Source of the DNA: Ktedonobacterales bacterium
GTDB lineage: Bacteria; Chloroflexota; Ktedonobacteria; Ktedonobacterales; JADMIN01
Direction: 5' to 3'
Assembly: GCA_030167145.1 (NCBI GenBank)
Contig: CP126532.1
Location: forward strand, 1,380,001 to 1,412,000
Length of the DNA stretch: 32,000 bases
Within the stretch, counting starts at the first letter, position 1, and each line of letters opens with the position of its first letter. The notes under the pieces were generated by a model. The model saw nothing but the letters and a program-made list of their open reading frames with translations, did no database searches and was not told the origin of the DNA. Positions 2,197 to 30,671 of this stretch are shown piece by piece. Position numbers and translations under genes: made by a program.

Positions 2197-3477
2197 TTAC
2201 GAGGCAGGCAGCAAGAGCAGGCTGACGACGCGGAAGAGCGCGCCCGCGTCGCCCAGGAGTTGCGTGATGCTCAGGCCGGTGCGCACCTCGACGTGGGCGA
2301 AGATGCCGAACTCGGCGAACTCGTGCGGGTGATTGAGCTTGGTGAGCGCGGCGGCGAAGTCACGCGATTGGGTGAAGGGCACGAATTCATCGTTGCGGTC
2401 GTGCAGCAGGTAGATCGGCGTCTTCACTTTGGCGACGAAGGCGCTGGGCGCAAGCGAGGTGAGCAGTTCGCGCATGCCAGGCGAGAGCGCGGCGATGTTG
2501 GCGTCTACATTTTCGGGTTGGTCGCCCGCCAGCAGATGGAAGGCGGCGAGCGCAGGCGGCGACAACTGGCTGAGCTGGTTATCGGAAATGTCGGGCGTGA
2601 TGCTGTTGGCAAAGGCGTTGGTGAGGATGTTGCCTTCGTTCAGCGGCAAGGTGCCCGCCATGACGTTCGCCAGCACTTGCACGGGCACGAGTTGCGGAAT
2701 CCACGGCTGTGATTTGCCATCCACGGTGATGGCGCGGCGTCCGAAGTCTTGCAGCAGTGAGGTGGTGTCGAAGTAGCCGCCGAAGAGGGTGATGAAGGCG
2801 ATGTTGTCGCGGATGCGCGGATCAGCGGCGGCAAGCACGGCGAGCGCGCCGCCCGCGCTGAAGCCGACGATGCCCACACGCTCTGGACCGACGCCCGGCA
2901 GATGTTGCAGCGTTTGGAAAGCACGCACCAGCGCATCGCTGTCGCTGGGATCGAGGTCGTAGTCAAGCAGCGTGGTGGTGGTGAAGTTCATCACGACGAC
3001 ACCCGTCCTCGCCAGCGATTGGGAGAGGTTGACGAGTTGCTCCACATTGCGGTTGTCGCCGACGCCGGGGATCATCAGCACGCCCTCGCGCTCGCCGGGG
3101 ATCAATGGGGCGGGCGCGTCAGGCGCGTAGATGTCCAGGTAGGTCGTGCCGATGGTCGCGGGCAGCGTCATCTGGGTGTGGCGCACGGGCGGCCCCAGCG
3201 CCTTCAGCGGTGGTGGCTCTTGCTGGGTGATGAGCGCGGGCAGCAGTAGCGCGGCGCGGACATTCGCCCGGCCCATGGGAAGCAGCGAGAAATAGACGCC
3301 TATGGCGAAGAGCAGCACGAGTAGCACCCGCGCGGCAATATGACGCTTTTTCAAGCGCGCGCCACTGGCGCGGGCATCAGGCGGGCCGCTCTGTGCCGCT
3401 GGTTGCGCCGCCTCCGCCGTATCCTGAGTTTGCTGCGTTTCCGAATCCACCGTGTCGGCTCCCCACGTTGCATGCAT
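2197..3477 (-). CDS. Membrane-anchored alpha/beta hydrolase (dienelactone hydrolase / S9-like serine hydrolase)
   Basis: N-terminal TM helix (VLLVLLFAIGVYFSLL), nucleophile elbow GFSAGG (G-x-S-x-G), and downstream acidic and His residues (LLHDRNDEFVP, FAHVE). Confidence 0.85.
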   Translation of the reverse strand: MHATWGADTVDSETQQTQDTAEAAQPAAQSGPPDARASGARLKKRHIAARVLLVLLFAIGVYFSLLPMGRANVRAALLLPALITQQEPPPLKALGPPVRHTQMTLPATIGTTYLDIYAPDAPAPLIPGEREGVLMIPGVGDNRNVEQLVNLSQSLARTGVVVMNFTTTTLLDYDLDPSDSDALVRAFQTLQHLPGVGPERVGIVGFSAGGALAVLAAADPRIRDNIAFITLFGGYFDTTSLLQDFGRRAITVDGKSQPWIPQLVPVQVLANVMAGTLPLNEGNILTNAFANSITPDISDNQLSQLSPPALAAFHLLAGDQPENVDANIAALSPGMRELLTSLAPSAFVAKVKTPIYLLHDRNDEFVPFTQSRDFAAALTKLNHPHEFAEFGIFAHVEVRTGLSITQLLGDAGALFRVVSLLLLPAS

Positions 3478-3790: not shown

Positions 3791-5428
3791 CTACTTCACG
3801 GCCTTCCAGCCGTCAACCTTCCAGGAAGTACCCTCCTGGATGGCAAAGAACGTCAAGGCAAGGCTTTGGTTGATGGGTATGCCTTGATAGGTTCCGGCAA
3901 TCCGCAAGTCAGTGTCTACGGACGCTTCGCCTGACTGGATTTTGTACGTCGAGAGTCGCGGCTGGCACGTGGTCCATTTCACGCCAGCGGGCATGCCAAA
4001 GTAGTCTAGGGACTCGAATTGGCTCTTCGAGATGTCCTGCTTAATCCCGCTCGAAAGCAGGTTATACGCCGAGTCCAGGTGGTTTGCCTTCAGGTAGCCA
4101 CAGAACTGGTTTATGGTATCCAGCGGCGCCAGATCGGTGCCGAGCAGCGACTGATCAATGCTGCTGATCTTCCAGGAGCCGCCCTCGACATCCAGCGAGA
4201 TGGAGCCAGACTGCGCGCCGCGCGTGGAGCGTGTGACGCTGGCGCCCAACGTGGTGGCAGTGTCGGTGTTGCTGGTGGCGATGGTGGTCAGGTTGCAGGC
4301 GGTGACGGGGCCGTCAACCAGATCCCACAGGCCGGTGGCCGAGGTGAAGAGCGCGGTGCTGCTCTGGCTGGTGAGGGCGCTGCCGAGATAGCTGTACGCG
4401 GAGGTGTAGTTTTTGCTGATCATCGCCGCGCAGAAGCCCTGTACGGTTTGCAGCGAAGTGAGGTTTACGCCCAACAGCGACGTGTCAATGGCGTCAATCT
4501 TCCAGCCGTTCTCGTTTTTCAGGTGCAGCGCGCCGGAGAGGCTGCCCTGCGTGTTGCGGTCAATGACGGCTGAGACAGTCGCGGTGCTGGCGCCGAGGCT
4601 ATACTGGTAGGCGTTGCCGCTGGTGGAGGGCTTGCAGCCGGTGACTTGTCCCTCGGCGGTGTCGAGTACCTGCGAACCTTGCGAGAACTGTTGGTGCGTG
4701 TACTGGCCCTGCATCTTGGCGGTGAGCATGTCATACGCGGCATCGTAGTTCTGGCTCTTGAGGTTAGCGCAGAACTGGATCGCGGCATTGGCTGGCGCGG
4801 ACAACTGCTGGAGCGCGAAGGCGACGCCACCTCCGGAAGCCGCGAGCAATACGGTGACCACAGCGAGGGAGATCCACAGCTTCTTGTGGGATTTCTTCGG
4901 CTGGGCGGGGGCCATCGTCGGGAATCCCTGCGACGGCGCACCCGGCATGCCGTAGGGATACATCGGCATAGAAGGCCCGCCGGGCTGCCCATAGGGATAC
5001 ATCGGCATGGATGGCGCGCCCGGTTGCCCGTAGGGTGGCATGGGCTGCGACGGGTCGGCTGGCACGCCATAGGGATACATCGGCATGGATGGCGCGCCGG
5101 GCTGCCCGTAGGGTGGCATGGGTTGTGAGGGGTCTGCTGGCTGCCCGTAAGGATACATCGGCTGGGAAGGCGGCGTTGCGTAGGGATTCGGTGTCTGCCC
5201 CGGCTCAGTCGCTGGCTGCCCATAGGGATACATCGGCATAGATGGTGCGCCCGGTTGTCCGTAAGGGTACATCGGCGTGGACGGCGCGCCGGGCTGTGGG
5301 TACTGCGGGTACTGCGGGTACTGCGGGTACTGTTGCGATGGATCGCCCTGCGGGGCGTTGGGGTCTGGCGCTTGTGGATCGTTGCCATAAGGTTGGGGCG
5401 ACGACCCCGGCCAGTTGGGGTTTGACAT
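3791..5428 (-). CDS. Single-pass membrane protein with an N-terminal P/Y/Q/G-rich tandem-repeat region and three C-terminal repeats of a roughly 100-aa two-cysteine module
   Basis: GAAGGA RBS 8 nt upstream of the start. MYPYGQPGAPSMP-type repeats occur about 8 times, plus QYPQYPQYPQYP. One TM helix (LWISLAVVTVLLAASGGGVAFAL). Three modules begin FC(A/G)..(K)..NY..AY..L and end GxWKI(D/S).ID.SLLG. The DNA shows matching tandem repeats at 4930-5335. Confidence 0.85.
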   Translation of the reverse strand: MSNPNWPGSSPQPYGNDPQAPDPNAPQGDPSQQYPQYPQYPQYPQPGAPSTPMYPYGQPGAPSMPMYPYGQPATEPGQTPNPYATPPSQPMYPYGQPADPSQPMPPYGQPGAPSMPMYPYGVPADPSQPMPPYGQPGAPSMPMYPYGQPGGPSMPMYPYGMPGAPSQGFPTMAPAQPKKSHKKLWISLAVVTVLLAASGGGVAFALQQLSAPANAAIQFCANLKSQNYDAAYDMLTAKMQGQYTHQQFSQGSQVLDTAEGQVTGCKPSTSGNAYQYSLGASTATVSAVIDRNTQGSLSGALHLKNENGWKIDAIDTSLLGVNLTSLQTVQGFCAAMISKNYTSAYSYLGSALTSQSSTALFTSATGLWDLVDGPVTACNLTTIATSNTDTATTLGASVTRSTRGAQSGSISLDVEGGSWKISSIDQSLLGTDLAPLDTINQFCGYLKANHLDSAYNLLSSGIKQDISKSQFESLDYFGMPAGVKWTTCQPRLSTYKIQSGEASVDTDLRIAGTYQGIPINQSLALTFFAIQEGTSWKVDGWKAVK

Positions 5429-23733: not shown

Positions 23734-25158
23734 TTAGCGGACGTTTCGTGGGTCGGCGTGCTCGCTGTTGTATGCTTCGTATTCTTCGTAGGCGTCGTCG
23801 CCGTCATCGCCGCTCGCGGCGCTCGTGGCGCTGGCGGTGAATTCGTCTTCCAGATACTCGATATAGGCGACATCGCGGACGTACGGGTGGTCGCGCAGCC
23901 CTTCGGCGATCTCGACCTCCTGGCCGGGGGCGACGTGGGCGAGGAAGCCGTGTTTGCGCGGGATCAGCCGCATGGGCCGCGCCTGCCGCTTGACGAGCAA
24001 CGCATGCGCCTGGCCAACGCTGACGCCATTGCGGAAGAAGATGGCGATGCGCCCTGGGCCAAGAAATGGCGCCTGCTGGGCGACGGTGGAACCTTCGATA
24101 CGCCCAACCAGCGCGTGCGCCGCCTGCTCCGCTTGATCGTGCAGGCGCTTGAGTTTGGGCGCGGCGACGGCACGGCTGCGCTCGGTGATGCCGCGTGCGG
24201 TGGCGGTGAGGCGTCCAAAGACATCGCCCAGGCGTGAGGTGGGAGCCGATTCGTAAGCGGGAATAGGGCGGACACCACTGGCGCGGGCTTCGTGCTGGTG
24301 GGCAAGGCCGGTGCGCAGACCAGGCAGCAGATCGCTCCACCACTGGCGCACGAGCTCGGCGACGGGCTTATGGCCGTCGGCGTTGGGGTCGCCGTCCGCG
24401 CGCGCGACGCGCTGGCCGTGCAACCGTTGGAAGCGCTCCATTCGGGGGTTGGGCAGCGCGGCGCGTGGGACGCCGCCTGGGGGCGATCCGGCGGGCATGG
24501 GGCGTCCGTCTGGCGAAGCGAGGCGTGAGCCGACGTAGCCGCGCGGACCAGATTGCGGCGCCGATGGGGACGGCTGCGCGCCCCGTGGGCGCGGCGGTAC
24601 GGGTGGCATGGGCATCGGTCGCCCGCCAGCGTGTGGGCGCGCCGGATCGTGCGGACGCGCGAGGGGTGGGCGCGCAGTGGGCATGGGACGCGGTGTTGCG
24701 TCTGGTCGTTGCGGCCACTCGGCCCAGGCGTCCGGCGTTCCGGGCGTGGCGCGGCGCGGCGAGAGATAGACGGTAGGCTGGTCGGCGATAGCCCACTCGT
24801 CTTCATCCACCTCATCGGCGATGCCGTCGTCCAGGCCATCGTCGTGAGCATGCTCGGTCTGCGTTGGGCGCGGGTTGCTCTCTTGCAACATGTGCTTGGG
24901 AATCGCGACGGCAAGCGTGCTCTTGCGCGGAAGAGTGGGTGGCTGCTCACGGACGATTGGGGCCTGCACGGTGGCGGTCTCATCTGGGCTGTTGGGCGCT
25001 GCCGTGCGCGCAGTTACGTCTGCGGGGGTTACGTCCGCAGGGGTTACGGCCTCCAGTTGGCGCGTCTTGCGAGCGCGCGAGACGGCGGGTTTGGCCCGTG
25101 CCGCCGGAGCCTCGCTAGCGGTGGTCACGGTTGCGTCTGGTTCAGGTTGTGTCGTCAT
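23734..25158 (-). CDS. Proline/arginine-rich, mostly disordered protein with a small folded C-terminal domain (possibly subtilisin-propeptide/I9-like)
   Basis: Coding-like bias is present. The C-terminal segment IAIFFRNGVSVGQAHALLV...HGFLAHVAPGQEVEIAEGLRDHPYVRDVAYIEY has a beta-alpha-beta pattern. The start is uncertain. The track ORF extends to 25518 but that part overlaps iscB. Confidence 0.6.
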   Translation of the reverse strand: MTTQPEPDATVTTASEAPAARAKPAVSRARKTRQLEAVTPADVTPADVTARTAAPNSPDETATVQAPIVREQPPTLPRKSTLAVAIPKHMLQESNPRPTQTEHAHDDGLDDGIADEVDEDEWAIADQPTVYLSPRRATPGTPDAWAEWPQRPDATPRPMPTARPPLARPHDPARPHAGGRPMPMPPVPPRPRGAQPSPSAPQSGPRGYVGSRLASPDGRPMPAGSPPGGVPRAALPNPRMERFQRLHGQRVARADGDPNADGHKPVAELVRQWWSDLLPGLRTGLAHQHEARASGVRPIPAYESAPTSRLGDVFGRLTATARGITERSRAVAAPKLKRLHDQAEQAAHALVGRIEGSTVAQQAPFLGPGRIAIFFRNGVSVGQAHALLVKRQARPMRLIPRKHGFLAHVAPGQEVEIAEGLRDHPYVRDVAYIEYLEDEFTASATSAASGDDGDDAYEEYEAYNSEHADPRNVR

Positions 25159-25186
25159 CTCACGTGCGGCGCGAAGACCCCTGCCT

Positions 25187-26479
25187 TCAGGCGTGGAGAG
25201 GAAGCGCCGCCGCTCCTTTCTGGTAGCGGTAGCCATCCCCCCGATGGAGGGGCTGACAATACCGCACGTGAATGCCCTGAATCGTGCCGGTCGCTGTAGT
25301 GAGATTGCAGGATCCGGTGGCGCGCACCGCCAGCCGTCCCACATACACCCCGGCTTTGGCGCTGCTCGCTGGCACCACAGCTCGTACGATGTCCCCAGTG
25401 CGGAAGTCGCCCACCACGCTGGTGGCTTTGGGGGCTTTGTCCGGGAAGCCGTAGGCGTTGGTGCGGCACATCTGGCGGCTATGCCGTCCGGTCGCCATAA
25501 TCTGAAGCGGCGCCACACCGGCGACCGTCAGGGTGGGCGGCGTGCTGGCACCGACACAGGCGGCATCGAGCCAGTGCGTCTTGGGCAGCCCGCGCTGGGT
25601 GCGGTTCCACTTCGTGCGGCCGCCCGTGCCCACCTCGACGGGTAGCCCGGTCGTCTCCAGGCGACGATACAACGCCCAGCGGGTCGCGTTGACCGCTGCC
25701 GCATCTCGCAATGGCTGTCGGGCCTGCTCGTGGACCTCAGGATAGCCGAACTCAGCGGCAGTTTGCGTGCCCTTGGCGGTGTTGCAGGCTGCGCACGCCA
25801 GCGTGAGGTTGCTCACCTGGTCGCTGCCGCCGCGTGCCTTGGGCATGATGTGCTCGATCTGCAACGGCACGCCGGTGATGCCGCAGTAGGCGCACCGGCG
25901 CTCCCATTTCTCCAAGAGGTATTCCCGCACTTCGTAGCCTGCCAGTTCTCCCTGCTGGTACGCGACGCCGCTGATTTCGGGAGAGACCAACCGCTGGGTG
26001 TCGAACTTGACCAATTCCTGGGCGAGCGCCCCGATGGGCGCGAGACGCCGCAGGCGCGTGACCCAGGTGAGGATATTGGCCAGGCGGCTCTCCAAGGACG
26101 GGGGCAGCCAACCCTCGCGCCGTCTGCGGTTGGCGAAGCGGGCGGGGCGGTAGCGGGTATGGCGCTGCCGTCGCGAGCGGCGGCACATCCGCCGCTGGTC
26201 GAGCCGGTCTTTGACCTGCTGGCCCCGATGGGTCAGTTCCCCAGCCCAGACCACCTGCCCGGTCGCATCGTTGACCACCGCCAGCCCGGTGGTCCGGCTG
26301 CCCGGATCCAGCTTGAGCCGCAGCGGAGGTGGTAGCGCATCGGCTACCGCCCGCTTCAAGATGAGCGTGAACGGGTAGCGATGCCAGACAGCGGCCTTCC
26401 CCTCGGTGAGCAGCCGCCGCGCCCGCGCCGGGTGGCACGGACTGAGCGGCCTGTGCTCGGTGTCTACTACGAAGATCAT
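25187..26479 (-). CDS. iscB: IscB: OMEGA-system RNA-guided endonuclease (PLMP domain, split RuvC, inserted HNH, C-terminal TAM-interaction-like domain)
   Basis: MIFVVDTEHRPLSPCHPARARRLL (PLMP-type N-terminus). LKLDPGSRTTGLAVV (RuvC-I Asp). Arg-rich bridge helix RRMCRRSRRQRHTRYRPARFANRRRR. AQELVKFD (RuvC-II Glu). CAYCG...LQIEHIMPKARGGSDQVSNLTLACAACNTAKG (HNH). THWLDAACVG (RuvC-III His/Asp). Confidence 0.9.
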   Translation of the reverse strand: MIFVVDTEHRPLSPCHPARARRLLTEGKAAVWHRYPFTLILKRAVADALPPPLRLKLDPGSRTTGLAVVNDATGQVVWAGELTHRGQQVKDRLDQRRMCRRSRRQRHTRYRPARFANRRRREGWLPPSLESRLANILTWVTRLRRLAPIGALAQELVKFDTQRLVSPEISGVAYQQGELAGYEVREYLLEKWERRCAYCGITGVPLQIEHIMPKARGGSDQVSNLTLACAACNTAKGTQTAAEFGYPEVHEQARQPLRDAAAVNATRWALYRRLETTGLPVEVGTGGRTKWNRTQRGLPKTHWLDAACVGASTPPTLTVAGVAPLQIMATGRHSRQMCRTNAYGFPDKAPKATSVVGDFRTGDIVRAVVPASSAKAGVYVGRLAVRATGSCNLTTATGTIQGIHVRYCQPLHRGDGYRYQKGAAALPLHA

Positions 26480-26900
26480 AATTGCGTGCCCTTTCGGGTG
26501 TCCCTGGTTGCCCAGGTAATGTTCCCCTCGCCAAGGATAGCCGGCGGTTTCAGGTGACGGCGGCACTGGCTGCAACCCCGTGTGCCTGTTTAACCACCGT
26601 CCGCAGCGCGGGGGACTGAGGTGCCATCCCCCGGTGCCTATGCATTCGCCGATATCGTAGCTCTTTTCAGAACTCAGGCTGGTCAGATCCGGGCTTGCTC
26701 CTCACAAGCCCCCGGCTTCAGCCGTGGGGTATCTGACGGTTGTACCTGCCCTTGTTATGCCAGGCGCGCTGTATAGGCATGGGCGCTGTTGTCGTCCCTG
26801 GATGCGCTGCCAGCACACTATAGGATACCCGCTAGCACACGCTTGTGGGAAACGGGCATATATGACACAAGGCCGCGCTGGCTGCGGATTCACGCCATGT
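26480..26900 (-). ncRNA. Candidate omega-RNA scaffold of the IscB element; the 5' boundary and guide position are not determined
   Basis: About 460 bp of non-coding sequence lies directly 5' of iscB on the same strand. Minus-strand hairpins include CCUGG-GCAA-CCAGG (26503-26516, GNRA loop), a 7-bp stem at 26609-26633, and GGGCUUG-UGAGGAG-CAAGCCC (26691-26711) nested inside GGCUG/CAGCC. The position matches the known IscB/omega-RNA arrangement. Confidence 0.45.
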
Positions 26901-26940
26901 TGCTGGCCGAAAAGTGTCCGGTAGCAGTGGGAAGAAAATA

Positions 26941-28137
26941 CTATGCGCGGGGTGAGAAGGATTGGGGTCTGATGGGCAGATACTCATCAATAAGGCGTGC
27001 GGCATGGCGCGAGATGTCTGGGCGCAGGGCATAGTAGGTCATGCGGTCGCGGTCGTAGAGCGTGACGAAGCCAGCGGCGCGGAGGCGGACCATGTGGTGC
27101 TTGGTGGTGGCTTTGGTCAGCCCAAGCGCGGTGGCAAGCTCGGTGAGATACATCTCGCGGTCGCAGAGCAGCCGCAGGATGCGCAGGCGGGTGCTATCGC
27201 CCAGGGCTTCGAAGAAGCGCAGAATCTCTTCGCTGGGGGCGATGGGGTCGCGCTTGCGCCGTTCCTCTTCAAGGATGGTGGCTTCGATGGGGAGGCAGAA
27301 GGTGAGCGTGCCGTGCCAGAAATGATAATACACGGCGGGGCGACTGAAGTAGCTGGGAGCAAAGATGATGCGCCGGAAGCCAGCCGGGCGCTCCCATTCG
27401 ACGCCGCTCATCGCATATTTGATGAAGCGGTCGGTGGGCATCTCGGCGCGCAGGCGTTCGAGCTTGGCGGCTTCGCGGCGCAGCATCGGCGCGACCTGCT
27501 CTAGCTCAGTGGCGAAGACGGCGTCGTTCCACACATGCAGCGCCGCGACCAGCTCGCTTCGCGCGGCTTCGGGGTCGCGCAGGATGGCCGTGACGACGGG
27601 CTGGGTGTCTGCGGGATAGTGGGCGAGGAGCTGCGGCAGTGCCGCACCAGAGCCATCTGTCGTGGTGGCGGCGCTCTCGACGAGCGCGGCGGTGAGGGCG
27701 TCGCGCCAGGTGTCGCCCAGCCCTTCCTGGTCGAGGAGGGTTTCAAAGAACTGTGCGACGGGCATATCGGCGAGCCAGCCGAGGAAGACGGGGATGTCGT
27801 GCGGCTCTGGGGCCAGCGCAACCAGCGAGATGACGGTGCTGTGCAGCGCGCCAGGGTGTGTGCTGCCGAAATAGCGCTCCAGCGTGTCGAGCGCGGCGCC
27901 GTCCTGTGCGGCGCAGAGGGCGCGGGCGGATTCGATCCATGCACGTCCGATGTCGTAGTCGGTGTAGTCGCGCTCTGGCGAAGCGACGGCCACATGCAGG
28001 CTGAGCAGGAAGTCATAAGCCGGTGAGGCGACGATTTCAACCTCTGGCTGGCGCGGACGTCGCAGGTCAACGGCTCGTGGCGGTGTCTGCCGTACGTCTA
28101 GCTGGGTTCCCCCACGACTTCCATTGCTCTTGTCCAT
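26941..28137 (-). CDS. ArsR-type winged-helix regulator with a large N-terminal domain (DUF5937-like architecture)
   Basis: C-terminal FFEALGDSTRLRILRLLCDREMYLTELATALGLTKATTKHHMVRLRAAGFV is an ArsR/HTH_20 motif, preceded by about 300 aa of an uncharacterised helical domain. I prefer the start MDKSNG at 28137. Confidence 0.8.
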   Translation of the reverse strand: MDKSNGSRGGTQLDVRQTPPRAVDLRRPRQPEVEIVASPAYDFLLSLHVAVASPERDYTDYDIGRAWIESARALCAAQDGAALDTLERYFGSTHPGALHSTVISLVALAPEPHDIPVFLGWLADMPVAQFFETLLDQEGLGDTWRDALTAALVESAATTTDGSGAALPQLLAHYPADTQPVVTAILRDPEAARSELVAALHVWNDAVFATELEQVAPMLRREAAKLERLRAEMPTDRFIKYAMSGVEWERPAGFRRIIFAPSYFSRPAVYYHFWHGTLTFCLPIEATILEEERRKRDPIAPSEEILRFFEALGDSTRLRILRLLCDREMYLTELATALGLTKATTKHHMVRLRAAGFVTLYDRDRMTYYALRPDISRHAARLIDEYLPIRPQSFSPRA

Positions 28138-28203
28138 ATGCTGCCGCTCCACTTCCCCAGGCGCACTCTGCGCCCGCACTGCCACCAACACCCGTCTTGC
28201 CAG

Positions 28204-28228
28204 GACGTTCTACGACGTTCTAACGTTC
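28204..28228. promoter_or_regulatory. Direct repeats GACGTTCTA x2 (10-bp period) plus a third ACGTTC, upstream of the ArsR/DUF5937-like gene
   Basis: GACGTTCTA at 28204-28212 and 28214-22, and ACGTTC at 28223-28. The repeats lie 67-90 nt upstream of the minus-strand start at 28137. Confidence 0.4.
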
Positions 28229-28312
28229 GATACTACTACCTTATGCTCACCATCGTTCGCCGTTCATCATACGTCGCGATGCCTCAACGCGCAATGGCAT
28301 ACATCAGCACGA

Positions 28313-28332
28313 GGCGGACAGGAATGTCCGCC
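28313..28332 (-). terminator. Hairpin GGCGGACA-GGAA-TGTCCGCC downstream of the GH15 gene
   Basis: 8-bp perfect GC-rich stem, 34 nt past the stop at 28366. There is no canonical trailing U-tract on the minus strand. Confidence 0.45.
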
Positions 28333-28365
28333 CTACCAGAGGTCGGCATTGCAAAAAAAGGACTT

Positions 28366-30444
28366 TCATGATGGCGGTTGGGCGCGCAGGATGCCTTCCT
28401 GGGCGCGCTGGAGCGTGACAGCGCAGTTGATGAGGCCGATATGGGTGAACGCCTGGGGGTAGTTGCCAAGCTGTTCGCCGGTGGCGGGGTCCAGTTCTTC
28501 GGAAAAGAGGCCGAGCGGACTGGCGTGGCTGAGCAACATCTCGAAGCGTTCGCGCGCTTCTTCGATACGGCCGAGGTAGCAGAGATTCTCGACCATCCAG
28601 AAGGCGCAGGCCAGAAACGAGCCTTCCGTGCCGGGGAGGCCATCATCGGCGGCGGCGCTAGGCGCGCTGTTTTCGCCATCGCCCGCGCCGTCACTGATCG
28701 TGCGGTAGCGGTAAACGAGCGCGTCCGCGCCGGAGAGCACACGCATCGTCGCGGCGACGGTGCCAGCGGTGCGGGCGTCTTCCCAGTGGAGGAAACCGAC
28801 GAGCGGGATACGCAGGTTCGCGGCGTCCAGTACGGTGGAATCGTAGGATTGCACGAAAGTGTTGAACTGCTCGTTGTAGCCGTGCGCCAGCACATCCGCC
28901 GCGATGGCGACGCGCGAGGCGTGCCAGCGGGCGAGCGCGGCGTGATGGCCGTGTCGCGGAGCCATGCGACAGGCGCGGTCGAGCGCAACCCAGCACATCA
29001 CGCGGGAATAGACGAAGGCGCGGGGGTCGCCGCGCACCTCCCAGATGCCGCGATCCAGGTCGCGCCAGTGCGCGGAAACGTAGTCGGCGACGGTGGCGGA
29101 GAGAGTGCGCATGTCCCGCTGGGGGAGGGAATCGAGACGCATATGGGCATGGGTGGCGTAGGTATAGGCGGCGTCGAGCAGTTCGCCATACACGTCGAGC
29201 TGGCGCTGATGCGCCGCGCCGTTGCCAAGACGGACGGGCCGTGAGCCGCGATAGCCTTCCAGGTGCGCTAGCTCTTGCTCGTCGAGGGCATGATTTGTTT
29301 CGCCGCGAATGCCGTACATGATGCGGATGTCGTCCCCGGACTTGATTTGCAGATCGTGCAGGAAGTGAAAGTAGTCGCGCGCTTCGCCGGTGTAGCCGAG
29401 ACGTCCGAGCGCGCCGAGCGTGAAGGCGGAATCGCGCAGCCAGGTGTAACGATAATCCCAGTTGCGGACGCTGCCGATGGCTTCGGGGAGCGAGGTGGTG
29501 GGCGCGGCGACGATTGCGCCGGTCGGTTCGAAGGTGCAGAGCTTGAGCGCCAGCGCGGAGCGGAGGACCGCGAACTGGTAGGTGCCGGTGTAGTGGCAGG
29601 CCGCGCCCCAGGTGCGCCAGTAGGTGAGCGTTTCATCGAGGTCATGCTGGAAGGGCTGCGCGGCAAGCTGGCGCAACAGATCATCGGCCTCAGCCTGGCT
29701 GCGCGCGTAGTTGAGCTGAGCGATGATGCCGCCGCCCGCGTGTAGGGTCGCGCGGACGCGAAGGACCGAGTTGTTGTCTTCCAGGGCGATGGGTGGCTCG
29801 CCGCGTGTGGAGGGGTGCAGGTAGCGCGCGGTGAAGACGAGATAGCGCTCGCCGTCGGTCAGAATCGCGCCGACCGCATCGTCATTGAGATTGTGCCAGG
29901 TGATGGTGGGCTGGCGGCGCGCGTAGTCGAAGGTGACTTTGAGGACCAATTCAACGGGCACGCTGCCTTCGAGGCAGGTGGCCATCCGTGTGACACGGTG
30001 CGCGGCGGCGACATCGTTGCCAATCTCGCGCTCCAGGCCGGCGTCAAGGCCGTGGGGGATGCCTTGCAGCAGTGCGGGCACGCGTTGCAAGGCGTGCAGG
30101 CTCTTTTGACGCTTGCGAATGGGCATGAAATCGAGCAGGCGCATACGGCCATGCTCGCTGCTGAAGGTCGTTTCGAGGACGTTGGTTTCGGGCAGGTAGG
30201 TCATCGAAGCCTGTGCCTGGTCTGTGGGGCTGATGCGGAAGTAGCCGCCTTTGTCGGCATCGAGCAGGCGCAGAAAGATCGCCGGACTATCGAAATGGGG
30301 GAAGCAGAGCCAGTCAATCGAGCCATTCGGCGCGACCAGCGCGGCGGTGCGGCAGTCGCCGATAGCGCCATACGCGCCGATGGGGTAGTAGCGCGGCTCA
30401 TGGTCTGCCCCAATCTGAGCCTCCACACGTCCTGACGGTCGCAT
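28366..30444 (-). CDS. Glycoside hydrolase family 15 protein (glucoamylase/trehalase-like)
   Basis: N-terminal YPIGAYGAIGDCRTAALVAPNGSIDWLCFPHFDSPAIF and catalytic-domain motifs (WDYRYTWLRDSAF, QLDVYGE, EELD...G..LGNYPQAFTH) are typical of GH15. GAGAGGAGG RBS lies before the ATG at 30444. Confidence 0.9.
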   Translation of the reverse strand: MRPSGRVEAQIGADHEPRYYPIGAYGAIGDCRTAALVAPNGSIDWLCFPHFDSPAIFLRLLDADKGGYFRISPTDQAQASMTYLPETNVLETTFSSEHGRMRLLDFMPIRKRQKSLHALQRVPALLQGIPHGLDAGLEREIGNDVAAAHRVTRMATCLEGSVPVELVLKVTFDYARRQPTITWHNLNDDAVGAILTDGERYLVFTARYLHPSTRGEPPIALEDNNSVLRVRATLHAGGGIIAQLNYARSQAEADDLLRQLAAQPFQHDLDETLTYWRTWGAACHYTGTYQFAVLRSALALKLCTFEPTGAIVAAPTTSLPEAIGSVRNWDYRYTWLRDSAFTLGALGRLGYTGEARDYFHFLHDLQIKSGDDIRIMYGIRGETNHALDEQELAHLEGYRGSRPVRLGNGAAHQRQLDVYGELLDAAYTYATHAHMRLDSLPQRDMRTLSATVADYVSAHWRDLDRGIWEVRGDPRAFVYSRVMCWVALDRACRMAPRHGHHAALARWHASRVAIAADVLAHGYNEQFNTFVQSYDSTVLDAANLRIPLVGFLHWEDARTAGTVAATMRVLSGADALVYRYRTISDGAGDGENSAPSAAADDGLPGTEGSFLACAFWMVENLCYLGRIEEARERFEMLLSHASPLGLFSEELDPATGEQLGNYPQAFTHIGLINCAVTLQRAQEGILRAQPPS

Positions 30445-30491
30445 CCGCACGCCTCCTCTCCACACCGGTTGTGATAGGTATACCATCCCAT

Positions 30492-30510
30492 GGGCGTCCG
30501 TCGAACGCCC
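30492..30510. repeat. Degenerate REP-like palindrome copy e (GGGCGTCC-GTC-GAACGCCC)
   Basis: 6-bp perfect stem plus one mismatch, the same core as the other copies. It lies in a divergent intergenic region. Confidence 0.6.
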
Positions 30511-30671
30511 GTGCAAACAGAATGCGTTTATGCCTGAAGGGCTGCACGCACCCGGCGGTCTTTGCGTGGCGCATATACTATATCGAGTACATACGACTCT
30601 ATGGACAGCATACCGCATCGCGCACCTATCTCATACTGCGAGATTGTCGCGGAGACGAAGGTGGAGACCGA

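Follow-up and report, generated by a model that had tools for sequence, protein, structure and literature searches.

This locus raises the question of what is encoded in the roughly 460 nt that separate the start codon of iscB (ATG, 26479) from the stop codon of the upstream ArsR-like gene (26941). In the window, i.e., the whole 32,000-nucleotide stretch of DNA analyzed here, neither of two independent gene callers places a gene in this gap, which holds only short overlapping ORFs; in this a sequence-only reading, which took the gap for a structured noncoding region with a candidate omega-RNA scaffold and guide, was right. IscB is a small transposon-borne ancestor of Cas9. We consider it highly probable that the minus strand from 26753 to 26480 encodes an omega-RNA, the partner of an RNA-guided IscB (OMEGA) nuclease whose gene lies within a non-autonomous IS200/IS605-type (ISC2) element occupying 26737..25159. 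The iscB-upstream RNA is a new copy of a known system, while its sequence is itself new. The RNA gene of about 258 nt plus the guide takes up about 274 of the 460 nt, and the rest lies outside the RNA gene. The interval divides as follows.

26516..26737, minus strand: omega-RNA scaffold matched by Rfam RF02033 (HEARO), model positions 1–211 of 211.

26480..26515, minus strand: 3′ extension of the omega-RNA beyond the Rfam model, with a first hairpin backed by covariation in relatives and a second hairpin and ribosome-binding site read from the sequence.

26738..26753, minus strand: predicted guide segment, 5′-AAGGGCAGGUACAACC-3′, its 3′ edge fixed by the drop in similarity and its 16-nt length inferred.

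26754..26940, minus strand: host intergenic spacer, formerly the 5′ region of the downstream host gene and outside the RNA gene, with no similarity to IscB loci, a fold z score of −0.46 and no Rfam match.

The covariance-model search that had been proposed for this region returned a full-length match to RF02033 on the minus strand, running from 26737 to 26516, at 137.5 bits versus a gathering score of 83 (E 9e-29; Rfam 15, whole window). This bears out the suggestion that an omega-RNA scaffold lies upstream of iscB on the same strand, with its guide at the 5′ end in flanking host DNA. HEARO has since become known as the IscB omega-RNA (Meers et al., bioRxiv 10.1101/2023.03.14.532601; review PMC13565253). 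No Rfam family besides HEARO was matched, either in the whole window or in the permissive E-value mode over 25000–27300, and the permissive search found no second RNA family in the 203-nt upstream spacer. In the covariance-model alignment, all consensus helices of HEARO and its pseudoknot are present in the window copy. The RNA spans 26737–26480 and thus lies directly upstream of the iscB ATG at 26479, on the same (minus) strand. Of the 460 nt formerly described as structured throughout, only the part proximal to iscB deserves the description: the fold of 26480–26737 reaches −108.5 kcal/mol (z −2.39; 2 of 200 dinucleotide shuffles equally good), whereas 26738–26940 folds no better than chance (63 of 200 shuffles equally good).

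All three hairpins quoted in the sequence-only reading occur where it placed them, namely a GNRA-capped hairpin CCUGG-GCAA-CCAGG at 26516–26503 (23 nt before the iscB ATG), a 7-bp stem CGGGGGA/UCCCCCG at 26633–26609, and GGGCUUG/CAAGCCC at 26711–26691. The supposed nesting of the last of these within GGCUG/CAGCC did not hold up, as the enclosing helix is GUCAGAU/AUCUGAC (26737–26731 / 26690–26684). GGCU instead pairs locally with AGCC in a hairpin at 26729–26709, and CAGCC is, in the family consensus, the pseudoknot partner of 26533–26529. The GNRA hairpin is kept among relatives, three of four pairs showing changes on both sides (variants CUGG/CCAG, CGC/GCG, CCC/GGG, CUGC/GCAG, CACC/GGUG, and CCUA/UAGG). 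Its position outside RF02033 agrees with the statement of Meers et al. that this model lacks downstream structural elements. Closer still to the gene, a small hairpin CCC-GAAA-GGG at 26498–26489 overlaps the likely iscB ribosome-binding site, AAGGG.

A search for relatives, restricted to one genome per species, identified 78 loci encoding IscB relatives, mostly in Ktedonobacteria and cyanobacteria. The closest protein is 76% identical, and the closest relatives share 71 to 75% nucleotide identity over the whole element. Rfam scans of 20 related IscB loci gave a full-length HEARO at the corresponding place in 19, ending 25 to 135 nt before the iscB ATG. The sole locus of the 20 with no HEARO at the gathering score is L068 (a Deinococcus radiomollis plasmid, 2700–3000), in which the IscB ORF is full length. 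RNAalifold on 12 sequences gave compensatory changes on both sides in 42 of 64 predicted pairs and a covariation term of −14.98 kcal/mol, values to be read in light of the relatedness of the sequences and of the structure being predicted from the same alignment that was used for covariation. In one relative, L040, a tandem duplication (2092–2151) containing ggccccccgcctcgaagcggc twice lies directly 5′ of the HEARO match; the Rfam match there opens atypically (GCCC... versus GTCA), and the 5′ end of this copy may be rearranged.

The 5′ limit of the scaffold is given by these same relatives. In BLAST comparisons against all loci, the matches of more than 15 relatives start at precisely 26737 or 26738, so that the comparison with other iscB copies, also proposed beforehand, gives a single point at which conservation drops (26737|26738). 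Upstream of this point, the 60 nt preceding each HEARO start align without conservation, no similarity was found between the spacer 26738–26940 and related IscB loci, and no relationship is seen 5′ of GTCA even when L007 is compared with L008, two copies that belong to one genome and have identical scaffold starts. The abrupt loss of similarity indicates that the guide is host sequence ending at 26738. The guide probably comprises about 16 nt at 26753..26738, and a guide of about 16 nt is reportedly typical of characterized IscB systems, as judged from work on OgeuIscB. This segment is host DNA carrying the Shine-Dalgarno-like AAGGG/GGCAGG of the host gene, and no second match to it was found in the window with up to three mismatches allowed. 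The sequence-only reading had put the guide somewhere in 26700–26930; its placement 5′ of the scaffold stands, but the interval was too wide, since 38 nt of it are scaffold and some 175 nt unrelated spacer.

The gene that follows the RNA, and the element that carries both, have these parts.

25187..26479, minus strand: iscB, 430 aa, RRXRR/RuvC with inserted HNH, assigned by Pfam, matches to solved structures and residue alignment.

25159..26737, minus strand: whole non-autonomous ISC/IS605-type element of about 1,579 bp, 5′-GTCA...GTGAG-3′ on the iscB strand, delimited by the extent of similarity (to L001, L002, and others), the terminal motif and analogy with L034/L016.

26709..26729, minus strand: sub-terminal hairpin of the guide-side (right) end, CCCCACGGCUGAAGCCGGGGG, 8 nt from the boundary, from the consensus alignment and DNA fold.

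25163..25212, minus strand: far-end (left-end) structure comprising an inner hairpin CUCCACGCCUGAAGGCAGGGG (25198–25178) and an outer stem (25212–25204 / 25172–25163), from the DNA fold.

25155..25158, minus strand: target/TAM-like motif ATGA flanking the far end, its ATG (25158–25156) being the host start codon, from flank comparison.

The 430-aa IscB matches Pfam RRXRR over model positions 1–174 of 174 (230.8 bits), in addition to HNH, and matches the solved structures of TbaIscB (1.4e-45) and OgeuIscB (1.3e-28). Its catalytic residues are intact by alignment with 11 to 12 homologs, in which RuvC D58, E155, H302, and D305 and HNH H210, N224, and N233 are invariant, as is the CxxC...CxxC zinc motif (C196, C199, C229, and C232). 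The exact protein is on record in one genomic context (two records with the same neighboring genes). No Y1_Tnp (TnpA) domain was found among the called genes within ±10 kb, and the element has no room for tnpA; it is filed as non-autonomous for this reason. About 98% of IscB elements are non-autonomous according to Meers et al.

The terminal motif ATGR is kept in same-genome copies, in the closest copies, and in several more distant ones, and the flanks diverge beyond it. Same-genome copies are alike up to ...TAGATGG (eight Ktedonobacter racemifer copies) or ...GGGATGA (L007 and L008) before diverging, and the window sequence at this end reads ...CACGTGAGATGA|CGACAC. For the six relatives in which similarity extends beyond the iscB stop, it ends 16 to about 35 nt after that codon. 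A repeat search within 25100–26800 returned pairs at chance level only and no terminal inverted or direct repeats. The exact insertion point can be read in K. racemifer, where one copy (L016, ∼2684–2724 and 4314–4460) is inserted in a repeated TnpB-like sequence with an uninterrupted paralog at 85% identity (L034:47–189). The empty site reads ...CTTCCCA|ATGGGG..., and the filled one ...CTTCCCA|GTCAGG...TTTTTAG|ATGGAG..., from which it follows that the K. racemifer element is GTCA...G, inserted directly 5′ of ATGG (N|ATGG). By analogy, the window element would extend over 26737..25159, with the far-end junction good to about 1 to 2 nt. An insertion model of GT|GR (Kapitonov et al.), under which the host start would be GTG, was set aside, as it finds no support in the one empty site identified, L034. 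ISC2 elements are described as having 5′-GTCA and ATGG-3′ termini, sub-terminal hairpins, and N|ATGA target sites (Kapitonov et al., PMC4810608). The guide-side boundary, which the sequence-only reading took for the transposon left end, counts as the right end under the IS200/IS605 convention that Meers et al. follow, where right denotes the HEARO end and left the end flanked by the TAM; Kapitonov et al. name it simply the 5′ terminus. In two relatives from different genomes, L003 (4288–4320) and L033 (4282–4310), family similarity is lost in the middle of the left-end hairpin, and the two share other sequence there, CTGAC(T/A)(T/C)TTATACACAAAT, which could represent a second inserted element or a variant end.

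The two end hairpins of the window element are alike, CCCCACGGCTGAAGCCGGGGG (26729–26709) and CTCCACGCCTGAAGGCAGGGG (25198–25178) agreeing in 17 of 21 positions, with a single compensatory change in the stem. The far-end hairpin lies 18 to 19 nt from its boundary and holds the iscB stop codon (TGA, 25189–25187) in the loop of its inner stem; a two-tier arrangement of this kind is also found in the K. racemifer copies, with different stem sequences. The hairpin at 26729–26709 is the first one inside the omega-RNA and presumably also acts, as DNA, in recognition by TnpA. This dual assignment bears on an alternative, that the conservation upstream of iscB reflects nothing but DNA-level transposon-end signals (TnpA-binding hairpins of the right end) in a silent or decaying copy with no functional RNA. 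Resemblance between the hairpins of the two ends is what TnpA recognition sites would show, and the absence of a predicted upstream promoter and the single copy on record point the same way. We nonetheless judge this very unlikely. TnpA signals extend over a few tens of nucleotides, but conservation here covers about 250 nt and includes compensatory changes in helices distant from the end; neither the IscB ORF nor any of its catalytic residues is disrupted; and the window RNA scores as well as those of multi-copy elements.

Less probable still is that the structured region acts purely in cis, as a 5′ leader controlling translation or stability of the iscB mRNA. The RNA ends no more than about 10 nt from the ATG, its last small hairpin covers the likely ribosome-binding site, and a weak promoter-like site at 26504–26475 overlaps the iscB start, but the RNA of this family has been shown by others to be the IscB guide RNA and the window copy has all modeled elements; a leader role may coexist with the guide role without replacing it. 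The remaining alternative, that the interval is coding, through an IscB extension from TTG 26575 or small overlapping ORFs (45–81 aa), can practically be dismissed, for such ORFs arise mechanically and are expected at ∼62% G+C, but the match to the RRXRR model starts at residue 2, and those of relatives in tblastn at residues 1 to 4, of the protein that begins at ATG 26479, indels are not multiples of three, paired-column covariation takes the place of codon-like conservation, and gene callers leave the interval empty. The N-terminal extension from TTG 26575 was rejected in favor of ATG 26479 and, given the RRXRR start at residue 2, is read-through of the RNA gene, as had been supposed.

The element interrupts a host gene at its start codon, and the gene concerned can be specified.

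23734..25158, minus strand: interrupted host gene, outside the element, encoding a 474-aa proline-rich protein (MTTQPEP...), assigned from orthologs downstream of the ArsR-like gene.

No Pfam domain was found in this 474-aa protein, which has a long proline-rich, low-complexity N-terminal half and a conserved C-terminal half. In metagenome loci with orthologs of the ArsR-like protein (54–70% identity), iscB is absent from 30 of 30, no gene lies between the ArsR-like gene and the gene downstream, and a host-gene homolog directly follows the ArsR-like gene in 18, with homology reaching residue 3 in L105. The order GH15, ArsR-like, MTT-protein gene is thus kept without iscB at orthologous loci. 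The genome and metagenome scans gave no orthologous empty site closer than about 65% protein identity; those identified share 55 to 65% with the window. Host-protein orthologs begin MTTRRN, MTTSSK, or MATTSK, on DNA such as gaggaaagatCATGACGACACG, and MTT... starts occur on ATGACGACAC, which places the beginning of the host gene at ATG 25158. The starts assigned by the gene callers, 24441 and 24498, are accordingly too far downstream. A 594-aa ORF (25518..23734) that would overlap the 3′ end of iscB was rejected as a gene, the orthologs starting at ATG 25158, and its upstream part is a mere open frame in G+C-rich DNA. Joined across the element, the flanks of the window read caagggcaggtacaacc|ATGACGACACAACC. 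The element sits between the Shine-Dalgarno-like AAGGG/GGCAGG of the host gene and its ATG at 25158; the host 5′-UTR ends in the 16 nt that make up the guide, and the host start codon is supplied by the TAM-like ATGA. The surrounding gene order is itself of note: at 26941–30618 (minus strand) and in the soil metagenome relatives L083, L087, L088, and L105, a GH15 glucoamylase/trehalase-like gene is followed by one for an ArsR-type HTH protein and then by that for the proline-rich protein, an order kept at 54 to 65% identity. The ArsR-like protein is 398 to 416 aa long, with a C-terminal ArsR-type HTH and an N-terminal part that is weakly DUF5937-like.

With a guide located outside the element, the RNA requires transcription that comes in from host DNA, an argument made for IscB omega-RNAs generally by Meers et al., according to whom these RNAs must be transcribed from outside the element. 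The ArsR-like gene upstream of the RNA is co-oriented, with its stop at 26941, and neither a sigma-70-type promoter nor an intrinsic terminator is predicted in 26738–26940; a co-oriented upstream gene with no predicted terminator fits the orientation bias reported by Meers et al. Transcription would begin in upstream host DNA, either from the promoter of the interrupted gene within the 203-nt spacer or by read-through from the ArsR-like gene. The resulting transcript would consist of host sequence, about 16 nt if the guide has the expected length (AAGGGCAGGUACAACC), followed by a scaffold of about 250 nt reaching almost to the iscB start. As in other members of the family, IscB would bind this RNA, and the complex would recognize double-stranded DNA that matches the guide and carries a TAM on its 3′ side. 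For the window copy, a TAM of ATGA/ATGR is predicted because this motif always flanks the other end of the element; K. racemifer IscB-1 has been reported to use ATAAA, and TAMs therefore vary within the family. The sole such site would be the donor joint, AAGGGCAGGTACAACC|ATGA, formed if TnpA supplied in trans excises the element. Its cleavage would force repair from a sister copy and so restore the element, by analogy with the IscB of Geobacillus stearothermophilus, for which the donor-joint mechanism is established (Meers et al., bioRxiv 10.1101/2023.03.14.532601). In the occupied locus, as read from the DNA, the guide match is followed by GTCAG and not ATGA, which would spare the locus from self-cutting.

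Compared with the HEARO/IscB omega-RNAs of OgeuIscB and G. stearothermophilus, the window copy has the same full model and pseudoknot, position, and strand, and likewise has a variable 5′ flank as guide and a 3′ extension toward the ATG; nothing essential differs, the distance from scaffold start to ATG being 258 nt here versus a reported mean of 242 nt. The window element also resembles ISC2-1_KR, an ISC2 element of K. racemifer (Kapitonov, Makarova and Koonin 2016). Both are about 1.58 kb, non-autonomous, and encode IscB only, and both have termini 5′-GTCA ... ATGR-3′, imperfect sub-terminal hairpins, and no terminal inverted repeats or target duplication. The window IscB is 57 to 62% identical to the Ktedonobacter copies. 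In contrast to ISC2-1_KR, the window element resides in an uncultured Ktedonobacteria-like genome of higher G+C and is flanked by ATGA rather than ATGG. The published target of ISC2-1_KR is GT|GG, whereas the empty site L034 supports N|ATGG for the K. racemifer copy. The TnpB/omega-RNA (reRNA) systems of IS605 elements, e.g., ISDra2, follow the same logic, with a scaffold at the transposon end and a guide derived from the flank, and in both systems the TAM is the target motif of the transposase and the donor joint a natural target. TnpB elements have their RNA at the 3′ end of the gene, transcribed from inside, and the TAM 5′ of the target, whereas for the window IscB the RNA is 5′ of the gene, transcription from outside is needed, and the TAM is 3′ of the target. 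As with Cas9 and its tracrRNA:crRNA, the nuclease is RNA-guided and combines RuvC and HNH, a structured scaffold replacing part of the recognition lobe; unlike Cas9, IscB has no CRISPR array or adaptation genes and has a single fixed guide set by the insertion site. The locus thus holds an IscB/omega-RNA pair that is apparently intact and had not been annotated before, and for which scaffold, guide, ends, and predicted TAM have now been mapped. Genome editors are being developed from compact IscB systems, and this 430-aa orthologue and its RNA constitute a usable candidate for them, one among thousands.

Of more general interest than the annotation of the window copy is the position of the insertion at a start codon, which recurs among relatives. 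In 32 independent insertions (one clade, several from the same genomes, the terminal ATG assigned by eye), an open frame of 100 codons or more begins at the terminal ATG in 18, versus 23% of 1,451 control ATGR sites in the same flanks (p 5e-5). Placement at the start codon of a co-oriented host gene was noted for the window and for L001, L006, L008, L009, L011, L012, L014, L018, L021, L024, L025, L032, L034, L035, L054, L058, L059, and L068. An SD-like tetramer (GGAG, GAGG, AGGA, or AAGG) is present in the 16-nt guide at 20 of 28 insertions, as compared with 18% upstream of control ATGR sites (p 6e-10), and an ORF-opening ATG together with an SD-like guide is found at 13 of 28 insertions versus 4.5% of control ATGR sites (p 6e-11). 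Of ten such ORFs tested with Pfam, eight proved to be real proteins, with a domain that begins, at profile position 1 to 3, among the first 25 residues (HIT, two protein kinases, DeoR, PadR, GNAT, AraC, and FMN reductase).

These observations suggest, as a tentative generalization that we hold to be possible but on balance somewhat doubtful, that IscB elements are located at the start codons of host genes and have the host ribosome-binding site for a guide. If so, the target motif and TAM, ATGR, would be the host start codon, the guide of the omega-RNA would be host 5′-UTR including the ribosome-binding site, and the host promoter would drive guide, scaffold, iscB, and then the host gene, translation of which would depend on reinitiation or coupling after iscB. 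Such placement would explain how an element that is unable to transcribe its own guide secures expression, and suggests that insertions rewire host gene translation. The placement is likely the outcome of selection, acting through a TAM that contains ATG, a dependence on transcription from outside, and the benefit of leaving ORFs undisrupted, and the insertions may have an active role in host gene regulation. A literature search, in which Altae-Tran et al. 2021 and Weinberg et al. 2009 were not covered, found no description of start-codon placement; start codons are absent from Kapitonov et al. (PMC4810608) and appear only as a plot axis in Meers et al. (bioRxiv 10.1101/2023.03.14.532601).

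In five relatives, L001 (4329–4332), L004, L021, L022, and L059, iscB terminates with the very TGA contained in the flanking ATGA. Overlap of stop and start codons as ATGA is a classic arrangement for translational coupling. The window copy differs: its iscB stop, in the loop of the left-end hairpin, precedes the host ATG by 28 nt.
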